NCBI GenBank assembly: GCA_965219415.1
Contig: CBDCNP010000002.1
Span: 256,001-320,000, forward strand
Length of the DNA stretch: 64,000 nt
Source of the DNA: Candidatus Marinacidobacterales bacterium
GTDB lineage: Bacteria; Acidobacteriota; Vicinamibacteria; Marinacidobacterales; DATDRI01
Direction of reading: 5' to 3'
Position 1 is the first letter of the stretch; every line of letters starts with the position of its first letter. Shown one piece after another: positions 26,416 to 34,416 of this stretch. Position numbers and translations under genes: made by a program. The notes under the pieces were generated by a model. It was not told the DNA's origin. It did no database searches and was given only the letters and a program-made list of their open reading frames with translations.

Positions 26416-27783
26416 GGATGTGTCCCGAGGTCCGTGGAAAAAGAACGGCGCCCTCCACTCCGTCATCAGAGTATCGTATCAGGCGGCAACCTCCGCGTGT
26501 TCGAGAACCTCGCTCAGACGTTGGTAGCCGTCGATGCGTCGTAGTTGAATCTGGCCAGAGGCGATAAGCCCAAACAGCAAAGCGACCGCAGACTCCTCGC
26601 TGGAGAACGACGCTTGAGTTTTCGTCCGGCGTCGAAACTCGAGGTTGAGATTCTCCAGAGCATTGGTCGTTCGAGTCGATTTCCACATGGCACGAGGGAA
26701 TTCGTAGAAGGTCAGCAGCTGATTACCGGCCTCCTCTAGGCTTCGGACGACGGCCGGCGCGAGAGGCGTCCACTTGGCGACGAGCTCGTCATAGGCTTTG
26801 CGAGCATCGATCCCGTTCTTGGCGTAGACGATCCGGTTGTAGTCACGCCGGAGCTCACGGCGTGCGTGCGCCGGGCAATGTTGGAGCAAGTTGGCGCGCT
26901 TGTGCTCGGTACATCGCTGCAACCGGCACCCCGGCCACTTCTCCAGCGCTTTCGTCAGCCCCTTGTGGCCGTCGCTGATCACTAGCTTGGGAGCCCGGAG
27001 TCCTCGAGCCTGGAGTCCCTTCAGCACGGAGCCCCAATGCGTCGAGGCTTCGCTCACCGCCAGACGCAATGACAACAGACGTTTGTGCCCGTCTGGCGCG
27101 ACCCCGAGCGCGGCCAGTACGGGTACGCTGATCACACGTTTCGCCATCCGCACTTTCAGGTGGAAGCCGTCCAGGTAAACGATCGCGTAGACCTCCTCGC
27201 TGAGAGCACGGTTCTGCCATTCCTCGAAGCGCTCCTTCAGTCGGCTAACCACGCGAGACACCGCGCTCTTCGATAGGTGCTCCTCACCGAGCAGTGGTTT
27301 CAGCGCTTTGTGGACCCGGCGGCTATTCGCGCCCGACAAGTACGTCCCCAAGAGCGCCTCGTCGACCTCACGAGTCCGGCGCGCGTACCGGGGCAACAGC
27401 TCGCTCCTGAACTCTGTCGTTTCTCCCGTTTCCTCGTCTCGCACGCGGGCTCGTGGCACCCGGAGCTCGCGAGTTCCCACCGACGTCGTCACGCGACGGG
27501 TTTCGGCTCCGTTGCGATATCCACGGCGGTCTTCCGCACGCTCGTAGCTACAACACCCCAGCGCTTGGTCGACTTCTTCCTCGAGCACAACCTCGATCGC
27601 CTCCAGTACCCGCATACGCAGCCGAAGTTGGACGAACTCCCGGTACTCGCTTACAGACTCCTTCAATATGGGTGGTAGGCTTCTTCATGGCGTAATCCTC
27701 CTCCTCGCCTTTCCAGGCGCGGTTTCGTTTTGCTTAACCGGAGGTTACGCCATTCTTATTTCCACGGGAAGCGGGACGGATCC
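26416..27783 (-). mobile_element. IS256-family element type B inserted in the IS3
   Basis: IR ggatgtgtcccgaggtccgtggaaaaagaacggcg versus ggatccgtcccgcttcccgtggaaataagaatggcg; 8-bp TSD aaaccggt at 26408-26415 and 27784-27791. Confidence 0.92.
26479..27688 (-). CDS. IS256 transposase (RBS and ATG at 27688 are out of frame with the 27666 ORF)
   Basis: GYRNG, VYLDG, ISDGHKGL, QRCTEHK, TTNALENLN. Confidence 0.9.
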
Positions 27784-27827
27784 AAACCGGTTTGCATAGT
27801 CAACTTGTCCACCAAACCGGAGCAAGC

Positions 27828-29117
27828 TCAGACCTTCTTCTTCGATACGGTTGATGTCTTCGCCTCGATCTTCAGTTCCCGCTTGAGAGCTTCGCGAAGC
27901 TTGGGAAGATGGCGGTAGCCCACCACCTTCCTCAAGCGCGGTTCGATGTCTACGAGCGCCGTTGCCAACCAGCGCTGGCGTTGGCTCGAGTTCTTCCAGT
28001 GGTCGACCTTCGCGCAGCGTTCCTCGACGAGAGCATTGACGGACTCAAGGCAGTTCGTCGTCTTGAACGAACGGCCCAGCACCGCGTGCACGCCGAGTCG
28101 ATGCAACGTCAGCGTCTCCTCGAGGCCTTCCTCCAGGCTGCCAGCTGCGGATTGGTTCCGCTCTTCTAACTCACCGTGGAGTTGCTCGAGCGCAGTGAGG
28201 GCCTCTTCGTACTCCGGCCTGTTGTAGGCCCACTGGAGCCGCTTGCGCCATGACGCCTGCTCGCCCTTGGACAGGTAGCTCACTACGTTTTCACGTTTGT
28301 GCCACTGGCAGCGTTGTATCAGGGCCCGCTTACGGAATGCCTTCTTGACTGCCGCTTGGAGACCCTTGCCGCCGTCGATGATCACCAGCAGACCCTGGGA
28401 GATATCGAGTCCCCGCTCGAGCAGTGAACGCAGGAACGGCGTCAACACCTGCGCGTTCTCCGTGTCCGTCTCCACGAAGCCCAAGAAGCGTTTTTCCCCG
28501 CAAAGCGTGATGCCCAGAGCCACGACCATCGTTGCCTCGGCGAATGTCTTCCCATCCAGAAACAGCGCCACCACATCCTCGCCGGTCAGATCCCGTTCCT
28601 GCATCTCCCGCAGCTTCGCAGCGCTCGCTTGCACGAACCCTCGGGACACCGTTGAGCTCGACAGCCCGATGGCGCCCGGAATCGCTTCCGCTGCCGCCTC
28701 GTAGTTGCGACAAGAGATTCCGTAGAGAACTCGTTTCAGCAGAAGATCATTCACCTCACCGCCGTGGCTCACCGCCTCGTAGCAGCGAAGCGGAATCTCT
28801 CCTCCCTCGATGCTCCGAACCCGTGGCACACGGATCGGTACCCGCTGGCCGCCAAGCCCTACCGTGCCCGGGTTGCTTCCGGGACGGCGACCGCGCTCCA
28901 GCTCGTCCTTGCGAGAGTATCGCTCTCCCGCCAACGCCTTCACTTCGTCGTCGAGCAACTCGTGAACGTGCATTAGACCAAGGGGGACCAACCAACGGAT
29001 CATCTCTACCTTGGCGTCCAGCGCGAGTTCCCCGTAATCCTCGTGCCTCACCATCTCGACCTCACCCAAACGACGCGACTTCTTGCGTTTCTTGACCGAA
29101 CGTAGCAGACTTCCCAT
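27828..29117 (-). CDS. IS256 type A transposase (429 aa; stop supplied by the IS3 end)
   Basis: Near-identical to 18281-19573. Confidence 0.92.
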   Translation of the reverse strand: MGSLLRSVKKRKKSRRLGEVEMVRHEDYGELALDAKVEMIRWLVPLGLMHVHELLDDEVKALAGERYSRKDELERGRRPGSNPGTVGLGGQRVPIRVPRVRSIEGGEIPLRCYEAVSHGGEVNDLLLKRVLYGISCRNYEAAAEAIPGAIGLSSSTVSRGFVQASAAKLREMQERDLTGEDVVALFLDGKTFAEATMVVALGITLCGEKRFLGFVETDTENAQVLTPFLRSLLERGLDISQGLLVIIDGGKGLQAAVKKAFRKRALIQRCQWHKRENVVSYLSKGEQASWRKRLQWAYNRPEYEEALTALEQLHGELEERNQSAAGSLEEGLEETLTLHRLGVHAVLGRSFKTTNCLESVNALVEERCAKVDHWKNSSQRQRWLATALVDIEPRLRKVVGYRHLPKLREALKRELKIEAKTSTVSKKKV

Positions 29118-29266
29118 CTCGGCTCCTTTCTTCGCGGCTTGATTTTGTTTTGTCCAACGCCATCAAACCACGGGGTTTGGAGCCGTTTCAATTCCCAACT
29201 AAGATTGGCACACTTTCGATGTCGTCATCATGGAGGTCCAAACCCCGCCGGTCCGCCAAATAAGAA

Positions 29267-30647
29267 GGGTTTACGCGGATTCGTGTGGGTAAGTTCTGAC
29301 GGAAAAACAGTGTAACTCATTGTGTGGAAAAGGTATCGAGTACTTCATCAGGTGCTGAAAAGTGGTCCATTTTTAGGATAAGCTAACCGAGTGAAAAATT
29401 CCCAGTCGATCCGCTCGCTGTTTGCGCTGCCAGGTTTCGTGGTTGGTGCCGGATTGAAGGGTCTATTCGGTGACCGATACGCCCGCGTCATCCAGCTCAA
29501 GAGGCGAAAAAAACAGCTGTGTGCTCTTACTGTGGGCAACGGTGCCGGGGGCGCTATGACACAAGTGTGCCGGGTCCGCGACCTGTCGTTGGCAGGCTGG
29601 CGGATCTATCTGGAATACGAGCGTCGGCGCGTCAACTGTTCTGGGTGCGGCGGTGTGCATGTAGAACACCTAGACTGGCTGGCGAACAACTCGCGCTACA
29701 CCCAGCGTTTTGCGGCGCATGTGGGCAAACTGTGCCGGGATATGCCGAACAAGGCGGTGGCCGAGATGGAACGTCTGCACCACGGTACGGTGAAGGCTCT
29801 GGATACGCTCTACATGCAAGAGCAGGTCGACCGGGCGGGGCTACCGGCGCCTCGGGCCATCGGTGTCGATGAGATCTCCATCCGCAAGGGACATAACTAT
29901 CGCGTCATTGTCAGCGACCTGGAGCGGGCGCGTCCCATCTGGGTGGGCGGTGAGGGTCGCAAAGAAACCGACATCGATTTGTTCTTCAAGGCGCTGGGCG
30001 GAAAGAAAAGCGCCCGTATCAAGCTGCCGCCATGGATATGTGGAAGCCCTTCCGGAACTCGGTGATTCACAACGCGCCTAATGCGCGGATCATCTCCGAC
30101 AAGTTTCATATCATGCGTCATCTGTCAAAGGCCCTCGATGAGGTCCGGCGCGGTGAGTACAAACGCCTCAGCGGCAAGGACCGGTCGTACATCAAGGGGC
30201 AGCGTTACACTTTGCTTTCCCGGCGGGAGAACCTGAGCCTAGACGGTCGCCGCGCACTCAAAAAGTTGCTCCAGGCCAACCGGCGCCTGAACACCGCCTA
30301 TATTTTGAAGGAGGCCTTCGGGCAACTCTGGGATTACCGCACCGAACGCGGCGCTCGCGCCTTTTTCACCCGTTGGAAAGACAGCCTCAAATGGCAACGC
30401 CTGCATCCGTACCAGAAGTTCGCCGGTATGATTGAGTCCCATTGGGATGGTATCGCCTCCTACTGTCATCCGGAGAACAAAGTCAGTCTCGGCCTAGTTG
30501 AAGGGGTCAACAACAAAATCCGTGTTCTGCAACGACGCGCCTACGGCTATCGCGACGAGGAATATCTCAAGCTGAAGATCGTGGCGGCTTTCCTTCCGCC
30601 ATTACCCAGAAATGCAGTTTTCAACCCACACGAATCCGCGTAGACCC
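29267..30647 (+). mobile_element. ISL3-family IS, copy 2
   Basis: Same IRs as copy 1; 8-bp TSD aataagaa at 29259-29266 and 30648-30655. Confidence 0.95.
29391..30643 (+). CDS. ISL3 transposase (2-bp-deletion variant; missing G near 30026)
   Basis: Near-identical to copy 1. Confidence 0.9.
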
Positions 30648-31076
30648 AATAAGAAAGGATGCCTTTATCCTTCATCCGTCGGGCAAATTCCGAACTATCG
30701 GCGAAGCTTTCTCGGCTCGAGCCGTTTGCTGGCCTGTTTCGTTGTCTCTATTTTCCGTCGCAGCCCAGGAGATAAATAGAGAGAAAAGTGTCACCGCGGT
30801 CAAGCTCTCGCTGATACCGGGCAAGCTTGTTCTCAAATGCTTCAACTGCGTGTTTACACCCATTTCCGCCTTCCCTATTAGGTTTAGGGCAACAGACACT
30901 CAACATCCACTTTAGCACTCATCTGAACATCAATCACTTACGGCGATGGGACTGAATGGAAGGTCTCCTTATCTCCTTCTGGCACCCAAATCACGCGGTT
31001 GCTCACCATCCGGCGTGGTCAGGGGCTCCTTCCAAGGGAGCCCCGAATAGTTTCGAGACAGGCTTCCGCCCTGACG

Positions 31077-31508
31077 TCAATGGGTGGCCGCGGCCCCCCC
31101 CCAGGGGGGTGGCATCTCGAACGTCGGCGAGTGATCGGGAAGGCCACTACCATGACAGTTGCGGCATGTTCGCTCAGTGGGATCGACCAAACCGGCCTCT
31201 CGGACTTTGTCGGGGTCAATCATGATCTCCGCGAGCCAGTAGTTGCCGCCGGCACCGTGACAAGACTCGCATTGCACTCCGGGGAAAACCGCCGGCCCGG
31301 TGGTATGACAACGAAGGCAACTCGGGGAGGGACTTTCGACACCGAGGCTATCGGTAGCCCGGGCGTGTGCGGTCGCGCGCCAACTCACATAGGTGGAGCG
31401 GTGACAGAGCTTGCAGCGCTCCGCGCCGACGAAGGCGGTCTCGTTAACGCCCAAACAAAGGAGGGAAGAGACCACAATGAGGCAACGAGTGGTGAAAGCA
31501 TTCGACAT
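31077..31508 (-). CDS. Small tetraheme cytochrome c (c554-like)
   Basis: Signal-like N-terminus and four CxxCH motifs (CKLCH, CLRCH, CESCH, CRNCH); GAERC..CH, W..T.HA, GVQCESCHG. Confidence 0.85.
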   Translation of the reverse strand: MSNAFTTRCLIVVSSLLCLGVNETAFVGAERCKLCHRSTYVSWRATAHARATDSLGVESPSPSCLRCHTTGPAVFPGVQCESCHGAGGNYWLAEIMIDPDKVREAGLVDPTERTCRNCHGSGLPDHSPTFEMPPPWGGAAATH

Positions 31509-31644
31509 CCTTTTCCTTGTGATCGCTTAGCACGGCTGAACCCGAGACGTCAAGACGTCGAGTCAGCCATCGAGATAGTCGAAAAGAGGAGCGCGACCTC
31601 CTCCCCTCGGCATCCGTCTGCCCGATTCGAACGTTTCGGAGTCC

Positions 31645-32841
31645 TTATTCGGCAAGGTGGAAGACGATTCCCAGTCCATAACGTTTGCCCCGCTTCACCA
31701 GTCGCATCCCATGGCGAAGCCCGATCTTTCGTCGCTTGCCGGCTTCGGTTGCGAAGCGCTCCCGGGTAGCAAAGATGACCAAATCCCCTCGCGTGACCGC
31801 CATCTCCCGAACTTCACCGTTCGGCATTTCGTCCAGCAGAACGAACTCTCCGCCATCGAAATCTCTACCCCGCTGGCTGAGCACAACCAACACTTGGTAC
31901 GGGAAGAAAACCTTTCCGTAGATGTCTCGATGGGGATGGTTCAAGCCTCCGCTGCCGTAACAAAGAATGATCGAGGAGCTACGTTCTTGACCCGCCCGGC
32001 GACACCGGCGCCAGAAAGCGTGCAGCGTTGGCGGGTAGGGTTCTCTAGCGCCGATGCCCGCGTTGTTCGCAAACGGTCGCAGCCGTTCGTACAGTGCCGA
32101 TCGGAGGGCCGCCGCCGGTTCCGAGAGTGGCTCCCGAAAATAGTAATAAGTACCGACTCCGTAGCCCTTAGGAGCCATGTCCACACGACGCTCGAACCGC
32201 TTCTCATCCGCGGCCGCCTCGAGAATCGTGCTGCAGTCCGACGAAGACAACAGCGCCTCGATATGAACATAGCCGAAAGACATCAAAGAATCGCCCACTG
32301 CAACCCAATCGAGCCGCGCCATGCGGCGCAGCAGGCGTTGGGCCGCCACCCCTGCGTCGGGTGAGCTGGACCCCGTGCCAAAAGGAAGTGGCTCGGGAAC
32401 CGCACTCGCCCCGTCTAGATGGACGAATCCACGCGCTTGCGCGACCACTTCGCTCGGGAAGCCTTCCGCCCGCTCCGGTGACAGCGTTGCGAGCCTTCGG
32501 TCGGAAGCCGATGCGAACCTACGACCCGTGTAGTTTCCAACCCAGGATCGCCCGACCCTTCGTGCCCAGTCGGCGATGCTCTCCCCTTTCCGAGGCCGCG
32601 CTCCTTCTCGACGCAATTGTCGAAGCTGCATGACGGCGCGGGCGGTGTCCTTGGTCAGCGTGCCATTCGAGGCCACGACCCGGTGCCACGGAACGAGTGA
32701 GCGGAGTCCGCATTGCCCCATCGCTCGCCCCGCGGCACGAGCGGCCCCGGGGCGCCCGGCCATGGCCGCTAGCTCCATAAACGAGCGTGTCTCGCCCTTA
32801 GGGATCTGCTTAGCCGCTTCCAGGTAAGGATTGAACCGCAT
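31645..32841 (-). CDS. Fusion of an alkyltransferase-like (ATL) domain, a Cys-less Ada-like domain and a 2OG-Fe(II) oxygenase (DUF2086/Oxygenase-NA type)
   Basis: IPKGETRSF.ELA..AGRPGAARAAG...PWHRVV; WVGNYTGRRF...F.SE..AQARGF; LDW, G.G.Y.YF, HRDIYG..FFP.Q, DFDGGEFVL, RHG, RYGLGIVFH. Confidence 0.8.
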   Translation of the reverse strand: MRFNPYLEAAKQIPKGETRSFMELAAMAGRPGAARAAGRAMGQCGLRSLVPWHRVVASNGTLTKDTARAVMQLRQLRREGARPRKGESIADWARRVGRSWVGNYTGRRFASASDRRLATLSPERAEGFPSEVVAQARGFVHLDGASAVPEPLPFGTGSSSPDAGVAAQRLLRRMARLDWVAVGDSLMSFGYVHIEALLSSSDCSTILEAAADEKRFERRVDMAPKGYGVGTYYYFREPLSEPAAALRSALYERLRPFANNAGIGAREPYPPTLHAFWRRCRRAGQERSSSIILCYGSGGLNHPHRDIYGKVFFPYQVLVVLSQRGRDFDGGEFVLLDEMPNGEVREMAVTRGDLVIFATRERFATEAGKRRKIGLRHGMRLVKRGKRYGLGIVFHLAE

Positions 32842-32969
32842 TTCCGACTCGACCGCGTCCAATACCGCCGACTCTCGGGCAACGCCGCAGAAGAACCGGT
32901 GGTATTCAACGCAGCTCGCGAAAAAGAAACAGCAAGCAAGGGACCGGAAGTATTTGTCGCGAGCTGTAT

Positions 32970-34196
32970 TTACTCCGGCCTCTCCCCTAGCACGACGTCC
33001 ACAGTCATCGACTGACCGTCGCGCAACACCGTCAGCGTCACGGTCTCACCCACGCGAGTCTCGGTCTCGAGATAAACGTTGACGCCACGGTAGTCCTTGA
33101 CCGGCTCTCCGTTGATGGCGGCGATGACGTCACCGCCGATGGGCACCCTCACGTTTCCCAATCTCACCACCTGACGCCCACCCCGTAGCCCCGCCCCGGC
33201 GGCCGGCCCCCGTCGAATCACTTCCGCGATCAACACTCCCCCGTCGGGTGGAATCATGGCGCCGACTCGATTCAGCACCTCGGCATGTGCGGGGCCAAGG
33301 TCCATCAAAGTGATGCCGAGCCAGGGGTGCGGGTAGCGGCCGCGGGCGATGAGCTCTGGTACGACGCGCGTTACGGTCGTCGTTGGAATGGCAAAGCCGA
33401 TTCCGGCGGAAGCACGGCTCGGGCTATAGATCATGCTGTTCACACCAACCACGTTCCCCGCCAGGTCCAAAAGGGGCCCCCCGGAGTTGCCAGGATTGAT
33501 CGCTGCATCGGTCTGAATGATCTCGCCTATGAAACTATAGCGCCTACCTGGGCTTTGGATGATCCTCCCCAGCGAGCTGACGACACCCGTCGTCAGAGTG
33601 CGATCGAGACCGAAAGGGTTGCCGATGGCCACGACGAAACGACCGACCCGAAGCTCATCCGAATCACCAAGACGAAGGACGTGCAAGCGTTCGGGAGTGA
33701 CATCAACCTTGACCACGGCGAGATCATTAGAAGGGTCGGCGCCCCCTATTTGCGCGCGGACGACGGAACCATCCGGAAAGGTGACATAGAGCTCGTCGGC
33801 CCGTTCCACGACGTGATAGTTCGTGACGATATGTCCGGTCTGGTCCCATACGAAACCCGAACCCGAGCCTTCTTGGGGAATGGCGTTCCGAAAGAAGTCG
33901 TAGGAGATCGATCGACTAGTAATGTTAACGACTCCGGGGCTCGCCTTCTCATAAACCGCGATGACCTTGACCTCGAGGTCATGGAGCGTGCCAGCAGCGA
34001 CACTTGGATTTGGATCCGCCTGTTCGCTGGCAGGCACTACCCCCGCCGACGCAGTTTGGACTGCGGGCTCAACGGTACTTGCAAGGGCATCGTCCTCACC
34101 GGGGGTGCTTGCGGGCTCTTGCCACTGGCAGGCAAAGGCACCTGCCCAGGATAGCAAGAGAATGCCGGCGCCCGACCGCACCCGTGAAACTCTCAT
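32970..34196 (-). CDS. HtrA/DegP-like serine protease with PDZ domain, probable lipoprotein
   Basis: GSGSGF, TNYHVV, DLAVVK, GNPFGL, IQTDAAINPGNSGGPL; AFAC lipobox-like motif. Confidence 0.93.
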   Translation of the reverse strand: MRVSRVRSGAGILLLSWAGAFACQWQEPASTPGEDDALASTVEPAVQTASAGVVPASEQADPNPSVAAGTLHDLEVKVIAVYEKASPGVVNITSRSISYDFFRNAIPQEGSGSGFVWDQTGHIVTNYHVVERADELYVTFPDGSVVRAQIGGADPSNDLAVVKVDVTPERLHVLRLGDSDELRVGRFVVAIGNPFGLDRTLTTGVVSSLGRIIQSPGRRYSFIGEIIQTDAAINPGNSGGPLLDLAGNVVGVNSMIYSPSRASAGIGFAIPTTTVTRVVPELIARGRYPHPWLGITLMDLGPAHAEVLNRVGAMIPPDGGVLIAEVIRRGPAAGAGLRGGRQVVRLGNVRVPIGGDVIAAINGEPVKDYRGVNVYLETETRVGETVTLTVLRDGQSMTVDVVLGERPE

Positions 34197-34276
34197 TGAT
34201 TCCAATGGCTCATCTCAGCAGCTAGTTCAGCACGCGTAGGGTAGCACAGGGGGATCTGGGTGAGAAACCCTCAGTA

Positions 34277-34308
34277 CCCTCGCCCTACCCTCTCCCAGAG
34301 GGAGAGGG
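34277..34308. repeat. Minimal CCCTC.CCC...CTCTCCC/GGGAGAGGG hairpin repeat
   Basis: ccctcgccctaccctctcccagagggagaggg has the same scaffold as the copies at 22566 and 52068. Confidence 0.6.
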
Positions 34309-34416
34309 AATAGATGCTCGCCTCCGGCTCGCACGACCAAAAGCGATTTGAACGAACGCGTTCACTCCGTTACATTCGGCCCAACCTGAGGAAGCGAAAG
34401 GAGCTAGTCCAGAAAA

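Follow-up and report, generated by a model that had tools for sequence, protein, structure and literature searches.

Two direct-reversal chemistries are, to our knowledge, available against DNA alkylation: suicide transfer of the alkyl group to a cysteine and AlkB-type oxidation of N-alkyl bases. In suicide transfer, as performed by Ada, Ogt, and MGMT, one protein is spent per lesion, and we know of no enzyme that removes O6-alkylguanine or alkyl-phosphotriesters catalytically. Here we examined a 64,000-nucleotide stretch of DNA from Candidatus Marinacidobacterales bacterium (phylum Acidobacteriota; contig CBDCNP010000002.1 of assembly GCA_965219415.1; hereafter the window), which encodes on its minus strand a 398-amino-acid (aa) protein that joins (i) an alkyltransferase-like (ATL) domain, with Trp at the acceptor Cys position of O6-alkylguanine-DNA alkyltransferases (AGTs); (ii) a middle module without Cys, the predicted fold of which is like that of the N-terminal domain of Ada (N-Ada); and (iii) an Fe(II)/2-oxoglutarate (2OG) oxygenase of the Pfam family Oxygenase-NA (PF09859). 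On balance, we favor the view that this protein repairs alkylated DNA oxidatively and is directed to lesions by two Ada-derived modules that have been inactivated.

Comparison with the closest described systems reveals likenesses and differences in each case. Like the ATLs (Schizosaccharomyces pombe Atl1, Escherichia coli Atl/YbaZ, and Vibrio parahaemolyticus Atl [vpAtl]), the protein has a single domain of the AGT C-terminal type with a helix-turn-helix (HTH), in which the arginine finger is kept and Trp replaces the acceptor Cys. Unlike known ATLs, which the available text of a 2023 AGT/ATL review describes as small stand-alone proteins that pass lesions to nucleotide excision repair (PMC10779285), this domain is fused to two more and has Phe at position 21, where AGTs usually have Tyr (Phe in 75 of 93 fused homologues, Tyr in nine). 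Both repair folds of E. coli Ada are present, with the middle module similar to N-Ada and the N-terminal domain to C-Ada, but their order is reversed (AGT-type first) and the AraC-type HTH is missing. As the protein has neither a Zn(Cys)4 site nor an acceptor Cys, neither methyl transfer nor a methylation switch is possible in it. In common with AlkB, it includes an Fe(II)/2OG oxygenase with an HxD...H...R arrangement, and PF09859 relatives are placed in ada operons; the ada and alkB locus tags of E. coli are adjacent in the available part of PMC3788762. Unlike AlkB (PF13532), however, the oxygenase belongs to a different family and its fold is nearer to prolyl hydroxylases. The stand-alone PF09859 proteins (~240 aa) share its Pfam family and invariant ligands, whereas the fused forms make up a separate, divergent clade without the invariant EQRPRxQSR loop. 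The closest solved folds of the oxygenase are enzymes of the prolyl-4-hydroxylase (P4H), prolyl hydroxylase domain (PHD), OGFOD1, and Tpa1 type, from which it differs by a sequence identity of only 10-18% and by the lack of any protein-substrate context seen for the open reading frame (ORF). Archaeal AGT and ATL fusions with endonuclease V (EndoV) also combine a lesion-recognizing domain with a second repair activity (PMC10779285, available text); there, the endonuclease partner cuts the backbone and an N-Ada-like module is absent, whereas the oxygenase here makes direct reversal possible. The same text mentions fusions with EndoV and a histone-like domain and none with an oxygenase. Overall, the ORF product can be likened to an ATL coupled to an AlkB-like activity and is a member of both the ATL class and PF09859.

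Parts of this picture have been anticipated. In Pfam, PF09859 is already described as likely to repair damaged DNA by oxidation, a prediction made for the whole family and reportedly derived from Iyer et al. 2009 (Cell Cycle), and the source names of some fused members are "alkylated DNA nucleotide flippase Atl1" or "2OG-Fe(II) oxygenase". The first-pass annotation of the window, made from its letters alone, knew of no description of the architecture; it is present in the databases (at least 93 protein clusters), while no description of an ATL-oxygenase fusion was found in the literature searched, which did not cover Iyer et al. 2009, where an Ogt fusion may be mentioned. We believe the following to be new: (i) the Cys-less N-Ada module and the doubly inactivated, Ada-derived layout; and (ii) the origin of the fusion in one event and its context of ada-PF09859-alkB operons.

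Domains of the fused protein

The ORF and the domains and residues assigned to it are as follows.

31645..32841, minus strand: whole ORF, 398 aa plus stop (31645-31647), ATG at 32841
32602..32841, minus strand: ATL-type domain, aa 1-80, from PF01035 and ungapped alignments
32737..32739, minus strand: R35, candidate arginine finger in GAARAAG, aligned with the AARAVG Arg of AGTs
32677..32691, minus strand: PWHRV motif, aa 51-55, with W52 at the alkyl-acceptor Cys position of AGTs
32416..32592, minus strand: Cys-less middle module, aa 84-142, predicted to fold as Ada does in its Zn/methyl-phosphotriester domain
32356..32415, minus strand: Pro/Gly/Ser-rich linker, aa 143-162, predicted local distance difference test score (pLDDT) 68-79, gapped and length-variable columns among homologues
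31648..32355, minus strand: Fe(II)/2OG oxygenase, aa 163-398, PF09859 with an N-terminal helical extension, from Pfam and fold
31924..31932, minus strand: H304-R305-D306, HxD iron ligands, H304 and D306 each in 92 of 93 fused homologues
31711..31713, minus strand: H377, distal iron ligand (RHG at 376-378), 91 of 93 fused homologues
31681..31683, minus strand: R387, candidate binder of the 2OG C5-carboxylate, 91 of 93 fused homologues

The frame is open over 31645..32862 and would encode 405 aa if started at TTG 32862 (ORF listing); the ATG at 32841 was preferred because the nearest homologues also start with MRFNPY. Contigs of public runs from three studies were found to span 31500-33000 in one piece with zero inserted or deleted letters, and two of these runs displayed 5-6 substitutions compared with the window over the same interval; no RNA data set was listed among the runs that contain this sequence. 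The frame is genuine and no assembly artifact. The single uninterrupted frame of about 398 aa claimed by the first-pass annotation, which had given no strand, was borne out, with neither a stop nor a frameshift between the domains in the contigs of the three studies. Profile hidden Markov models (HMMs) matched DNA_binding_1 and Oxygenase-NA and did not match Ada_Zn_binding, and from NCBIfam only an ogt superfamily model was found. A full-length AlphaFold2 model based on 27 homologues was confident and compact (pLDDT 92.4; predicted template modeling score 0.89).

The N-terminal domain is an ATL on every sequence criterion tested. Pfam DNA_binding_1 (PF01035) matched aa 7-80 (E 4.6e-20; 71.7 bits versus a cut-off of 27), and no match to the N-terminal AGT domain (Methyltransf_1N, PF02870) was detected in the ORF, the PF01035 match beginning at residue 7. 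When compared with PDB sequences by phmmer, aa 9-80 aligned without gaps to Mycobacterium tuberculosis (Mtb) OGT (E 1.3e-10), and gapless alignments were likewise obtained with vpAtl (2kif, E 1.3e-10) and S. pombe Atl1 (3gva, E 7.9e-10); human AGT (hAGT) was also aligned, and C-Ada (1sfe) was matched at E 1.7e-7. In these alignments, W52 stands opposite the Cys of Mtb OGT (VPCHRV) and the Trp of vpAtl (PWFRV), while F21 (GETRSF) stands opposite the OGT Tyr (GETRSY); W52, F21, and R35 are presumably the counterparts of hAGT Cys145, Tyr114, and Arg128. The acceptor Cys column of the 93 fused homologues holds Trp in 84, Arg in five, Val in two, His in one, and Cys in one (P0058), and R35 is Arg in 92 with one gap. 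Trp for Cys in PWHRV, the ARA arginine finger, and Phe in RSF, all reported in the first-pass annotation, were recovered in this way. Identity as an AGT/Ogt suicide methyltransferase was rejected, as Trp occupies the place of the nucleophilic Cys of PCHRV. The domain scored equally against a true AGT (Mtb OGT) and vpAtl, and we suspect that it derives separately from an Ada/Ogt-type AGT.

The middle module is very probably a degenerate N-Ada domain, as judged from its modeled fold and from its architecture context. In the full-length model, residues 89-136 form a helix-strand-strand-helix-strand-helix arrangement, and the module modeled alone (aa 81-142, 19 sequences) reached an AlphaFold2 pLDDT of 93.3. 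A Foldseek search of 350,542 PDB chains returned eight rows, the top three of which were N-Ada (1u8b, 1zgw, and 1wpk), with TM-scores of 0.59-0.63 and E-values of 0.86-4.3 that are weak on their own. With VIA-align against 48,161 representatives, 1u8b_A ranked first (Z 6.0; root mean square deviation 3.0; 57 of 62 residues; chain residues 2-69) and 1eyf_A second (Z 5.0), followed by an unrelated row at Z 2.7; the range matched on the 1u8b chain is the Zn/methyl-phosphotriester repair subdomain. By sequence, Pfam returned nothing on aa 81-229 even at E 10, the Ada_Zn_binding model (PF02805) did not match the module in a genome-wide profile search, and a profile of the module retrieved only noise and no Ada from PDB sequences. 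Against 1.84 billion representative proteins, the same profile had 41 matches, and none of the 16 that were scanned with Pfam had Ada_Zn_binding. Alignment by hhalign to 16 genuine Ada_Zn domains was weak (Prob 31%, P 5.2e-4, 25 columns) and in the expected register, i.e., strand 3, the helix, and then G-F-(R)-P. From the pattern and this register, Ada Cys38, Cys42, Cys69, and Cys72 would fall opposite A110, D114, L142, and A145. No Cys occurs in aa 84-142, and the module has no Cys in 45, one in 23, and two in five of the 73 homologues that include it (long forms); with at most two Cys per module in all long forms, a Zn(Cys)4 site is therefore excluded. Membership of Ada_Zn_binding by sequence or ligands was rejected, as there is no Pfam match and the four Cys ligands are gone. 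Thus, the Cys-less Ada-like second module proposed from the letters is supported by fold and by architecture context, and by no HMM.

The context in question includes a Methylomirabilota metagenome-assembled genome (L076), in which an AGT with PCHRV and then a four-Cys Ada_Zn (Pfam E 7.8e-8) are encoded in one gene that overlaps the start of the oxygenase gene; the domain order is that of the ORF and the active sites are intact. The nearest ESM Atlas cluster (score 0.81) is a 312-aa family of 92 members annotated 100% as Ada_Zn_binding plus Oxygenase-NA, which we treat as an unverified lead. Long Ada-oxygenase "fusions" were found mostly as singletons, with out-of-frame stretches in P0189 and P0190, and were taken as adjacency. 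Several other proteins touch on the module. Pfam-recognized Ada_Zn domains with three of the four Zn-ligand Cys replaced occur in the full Ada of two Cupriavidus species, and one with all four replaced occurs in that of a Rhodoferax (loci L015, L021, and L081); these domains are natural intermediates toward a Cys-less N-Ada. Four proteins (P0131, P0138, P0145, and P0148) combine an ATL (PWWRV/PWHRV) with the same middle module and have no oxygenase, indicating that the pair of ATL and Cys-less N-Ada-like module exists as a unit of its own; their N termini are long, acidic, of low complexity, and eukaryotic-looking. One fused form of 520 aa (P0136) has Lys-rich inserts.

The oxygenase is a standard double-stranded beta-helix and no AlkB. 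Pfam Oxygenase-NA matched aa 230-396 (E 3.6e-44; 150.7 bits versus a cut-off of 26.2), and the domain start was set at about aa 163 because stand-alone homologues align from about aa 170 and fold matches span 160-398. The HRD...RHG...R pattern of a full Oxygenase-NA-type dioxygenase, already read from the letters, was found, and no substitution of H304, D306, H377, or R387 was seen when fused and stand-alone forms were aligned together; the role of R387 is suggested by the usual 2OG oxygenase layout. The AlkB family (PF13532) was not matched in the ORF by Pfam at E 1, a match to 2OG-FeII_Oxy_3 (PF13640) was borderline at 26.2 bits, below its 27-bit cut-off, and no sequence relative of the oxygenase was detected among PDB entries. 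The nearest solved folds were 6t8m and 6n1f (Z 15.3), 4iw3 (P4H/EF-Tu, Z 14.9), OGFOD1 (4nhx, Z 14.8), and Tpa1 (4nhk, Z 14.7), compared with Z 12.8 for ALKBH6 and 12.3 for E. coli AlkB; the best Foldseek match was 4j25 (E 1.8e-8). These neighbors, i.e., PHD, P4H (EF-Tu), OGFOD1, and Tpa1, together with a 2OG-FeII_Oxy_3 score barely under the cut-off, speak for a damage-sensing regulator, in which the ATL and N-Ada-like parts would sense alkylated DNA and the oxygenase would hydroxylate a protein, such as a repair or translation factor, as a signal, with DNA not being its substrate. However, the Z spread across 2OG oxygenases is small (15.3 versus 12.3-12.8 for the AlkB family), no partner gene was found to be conserved next to the fused gene, and the operon partners of the family are DNA repair genes, so that we consider such a regulator decidedly improbable.

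Fused family and operons of stand-alone relatives

The fused architecture was found in at least 93 protein clusters (93 of the best 120 proteins from a search of 5.8 billion), of which 73 have the middle module and 20 do not (short forms), and full-length homologues at 73-81% identity were found. So many fused homologues greatly exceed what is expected by chance. A maximum-likelihood tree (quick search) was built from 104 oxygenase domains, with the long-form and plain stand-alone rows thinned by half. In the tree, 59 rows formed a fused clade apart from the 45 stand-alone rows, with a support of 100; four of the 59 have no detectable ATL and are probably truncated. All 20 short forms fell in one nested clade (support 96) within a group that holds long forms. 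If the root is placed among the stand-alone forms, a single fusion event that already included the module was followed by one loss of the module. Scores of the PF09859 model range from E 1e-26 to 1e-45 for fused forms and are about 1e-87 for stand-alone forms of the same order. A basic loop after the GGEF motif, EQRPRxQSR, was found to be invariant in stand-alone PF09859 proteins, and the fused clade displays a variable, non-basic loop at this position; EQRPRxQSR may contact DNA and may have become superfluous once binding modules were fused.

Within the order of the window's genome (55 genomes, its own included), the fused form occurs in 12 genomes and the stand-alone form in four others, while among 301 genomes across the phylum a full-length match was detected in the window's genome only and the oxygenase part alone in 15 others. 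Three of the fused copies within the order deserve mention. A genome of another genus of the same family carries a copy (G304:C1:7072-8265) that is 100% identical to the ORF of the window (G000:C3:287648-288841). The window's assembly (G000) measures 8.05 Mb, with a contamination of 8.45%; some sequence may be common to the two assemblies, or one of them may have been binned wrongly. A copy of the same genus (G305:C1:161415-162509, 72% identity) has an internal TAA and a match that begins only at aa 27, and in another genome the gene is divided into two neighboring pieces (G350:C181:4670-5777, aa 3-182 and 186-398); pseudogenization, a split form of the gene, or errors in sequencing may account for these two. 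Decay of the fusion into a non-functional remnant of an ada-oxygenase operon, its domains inactivated, would agree with both of these copies, with the loss of both acceptor sites, and with the insertion sequence (IS) elements 1-5 kb away in the window, but is scarcely credible given the near-invariant catalytic and DNA-binding residues across the 93 fused homologues, the confident structure models, and a frame that is intact in the contigs of three studies.

PF09859 is widespread and occurs in ada operons, sometimes between ada and alkB; no substrate was found reported for it in the literature searched. A contig scan with one genome per species yielded at least 592 stretches that encode relatives, of which the best 80 loci were kept. 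An AGT-domain ORF was found within the 4-kb flanks in 28 of these 80 stand-alone loci. One such ORF per locus, in most cases on the strand of the oxygenase gene and either overlapping it or immediately preceding it, was scanned with Pfam: 14 encode a full Ada (Ada_Zn, AraC HTH, and AGT), 12 are Ogt-like or AGT-only, one is Ada_Zn plus AGT (L066), and one is AGT plus Ada_Zn (L076). PCHR[VI] was seen in 27 of the 28, with L048 missed by the pattern, and no genuine fusion of Ada_Zn with an oxygenase was present among the 80 loci. In the window's order, all four stand-alone PF09859 genes directly adjoin a strong PF13532 alkB. The order ada (Ada_Zn, AraC HTH, and AGT)-PF09859-alkB, with overlapping stops and starts, was found at two loci (L117 in G343:C15 and L119 in G337:C14), and two further genomes (G344:C9 and G345:C510) have the same three-gene arrangement by coordinates. 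Two different 2OG oxygenases are therefore encoded in one adaptive-response operon, which makes PF09859 an adaptive-response gene that accompanies AlkB and does not replace it; because both occur in one operon, their roles are probably non-redundant. Explanation of PF09859 as an AlkB stand-in was rejected on the same ground. The link to DNA alkylation repair proposed in the first-pass annotation is strengthened by these ada/ogt and ada-PF09859-alkB operons. In Caulobacter, according to the available part of PMC10957082, the gene most strongly induced by methyl methanesulfonate is ccna_00745, a predicted 2OG dioxygenase that is co-operonic with cada1, which encodes the Ada A-box Zn domain and PF01035; ccna_00745 was not mentioned in the supplements of that paper, as far as these were available. 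A PF09859 match is present in a Caulobacter control genome, and L066 has what would be the same gene pair, an Ada_Zn plus AGT gene together with a PF09859 gene.

The operon data also bear on nucleic acid modification, in which the oxygenase would make or edit a modified base (compare TET/JBP) and the ATL would serve only as a base-flipping clamp. Base-modifying enzymes exist among the 2OG oxygenases, and base flipping by ATL-type domains is established, but no methyltransferase, glycosyltransferase, or restriction context surrounds the fused genes and the family resides in ada/alkB operons, which renders this explanation very unlikely.

Proposed function

In the repair enzyme we favor, the PF09859 oxygenase would be the catalytic part and the two preceding modules would descend from the two halves of Ada, both without their suicide acceptors: the AGT-type module would have turned into an ATL that keeps the arginine finger and HTH with Trp for Cys, and the N-Ada-type module would have lost its four Zn-binding Cys. 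The reaction may proceed as follows: (i) duplex DNA would be bound by the ATL domain and the alkylated base flipped, with the N-Ada-like module touching the backbone and rigidly linking the ATL to the oxygenase; (ii) with the lesion held by or next to the modules, the oxygenase would hydroxylate its alkyl carbon; and (iii) the hydroxyalkyl product would break down to an aldehyde and restored DNA. Many turnovers per protein would be possible, unlike in Ada and Ogt. The pattern of conservation (iron and 2OG ligands in 91-92, R35 in 92, and Trp in 84 of the 93 fused homologues) indicates that binding and catalysis are under selection and that alkyl acceptance is not. The DNA-flipping and DNA-binding residues are kept and exactly the alkyl acceptors are removed, which fits DNA targeting and not the regeneration of cysteines in cis.

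The last point concerns a role in which PF09859 oxygenases would strip the S-methyl group from alkylated Cys of Ada and Ogt, regenerating these proteins or ending the adaptive response; in the fused form, the dead modules would bring the oxygenase to a DNA-bound alkylated AGT or Ada in trans. That the nearest solved folds hydroxylate proteins, that ada/ogt genes with intact Cys are overlapped or immediately followed by stand-alone oxygenase genes, and that the window's genome retains Ada and two Cys-bearing AGTs would all be consistent with repair of the repair protein. The acceptor Cys is, however, gone in 92 of the 93 fused homologues and no more than two Cys per module remain in the 73 long forms, such that the substrate is missing in cis and the pattern of residue loss is better explained by DNA targeting; this role appears improbable.

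For the DNA repair enzyme, the most attractive candidate substrates are O6-alkylguanine/O4-alkylthymine or alkyl-phosphotriesters, and N-alkyl bases that AlkB does not handle are possible. Reversal of O6-alkylguanine and/or alkyl-phosphotriesters as the actual activity is a tentative proposal and on balance unlikely. It is similarly doubtful that the protein, and by extension PF09859, stands for a third way of reversing DNA alkylation directly, as an O-dealkylase that is oxidative and catalytic. As such, each dead module would present the lesion that its ancestor repaired by suicide, with O6-alkylguanine/O4-alkylthymine in the ATL pocket and alkyl-phosphotriesters on the Cys-less N-Ada module; the iron centre would hydroxylate the alkyl group, the aldehyde would leave, and an enzyme with turnover would replace the stoichiometric chemistry of Ada. 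O-dealkylation by 2OG oxygenases has a precedent in the plant alkaloid O-demethylases.

Several points weigh against a function in oxidative DNA-alkylation repair. Activity, DNA binding, or expression of any PF09859 member was absent from the literature searched, the nearest folds of the oxygenase act on proteins (Z 14.7-15.3 versus 12.3 for E. coli AlkB), and canonical ATLs hold the flipped base inside the ATL pocket. The genes that neighbor the fused ORF give no repair context, and ccna_00745 is probably, rather than demonstrably, a PF09859 member. Since the stand-alone relatives coexist with active Ada and AlkB, the substrate of the family need not be O6-alkylguanine and may be something that no fused module is known to recognize. 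Moreover, EQRPRxQSR is not kept in the fused clade and the fused enzymes may thus differ in substrate handling. Of the interpretation put forward in the first-pass annotation, the three domain assignments and the link to alkylation repair stand; O6-alkylguanine, for which it proposed catalytic reversal, is one among several candidate substrates, and the oxygenase fold proved nearer to prolyl hydroxylases than to AlkB.

The fusion may be regarded as a natural label, an oxygenase joined to both folds by which Ada recognizes lesions, from which the acceptors alone have been removed. This label suggests that alkylated DNA is what the enzyme acts on and leaves fewer lesions to be tried; the substrate question of PF09859 becomes directly testable. 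If the repair function is correct, a further repair pathway would be gained and a so far unassigned component of the adaptive response would be explained. An O-dealkylase would further give a substrate to the Ada-regulon oxygenase of many bacteria, and a non-suicidal protein that handles O6-alkylguanine would be of interest in biotechnology and in understanding resistance to alkylating agents. Should the substrate be an ordinary AlkB-type lesion, the protein would still be a tidy case of enzyme targeting by inactivated repair domains.

Host genome and gene neighborhood

The window's genome (96% completeness) encodes one Ada, two Cys-bearing AGTs, the fusion, and an ATL-like fragment, and at this completeness no PF13532 AlkB match was detected in the whole genome. 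A weak PF13532 match was found in one of the 12 fused-form genomes, which are kin and not independent, and no statistic was drawn from this count. The ATL-like fragment (L005, G000:C3:591092-594217; match at 592592-592717) has the sequence LPWHRVV, covers PF01035 positions 20-63 only, and has two stop codons ahead of it; possibly, a stand-alone ATL was truncated or frame-shifted here.

The ORF is flanked in the window by the following features.

26479..27666 and 27828..29117, minus strand: Mutator-family transposases of an IS cluster
29391..30065 and 30032..30643: ISL3 transposase in two overlapping frames, same IS cluster
31077-31508, minus strand: small protein resembling cytochrome c554 (Pfam E 3.8e-7), CxxCH present four times, flanking gene
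32970-34205, minus strand: trypsin-like/PDZ (HtrA-type) protease, flanking gene

The IS cluster (26479-30643) sits 1-5 kb downstream of the ORF. No sigma-70-like site was found in 31000-34400 by promoter scan, and terminator-like sites were at chance level. Synteny of the ORF with the protease and an alpha/beta hydrolase is seen in a genome of the same genus and not beyond the genus, and no conserved repair partner was found beside the fused gene in the neighborhoods of eight relatives. In four genomes of a sister family (L110, L112, L114, and L116), a small PilZ-domain gene directly adjoins the fused gene, with a DUF4388 gene beside the PilZ gene at two of these four loci; the PilZ adjacency probably reflects lineage synteny.

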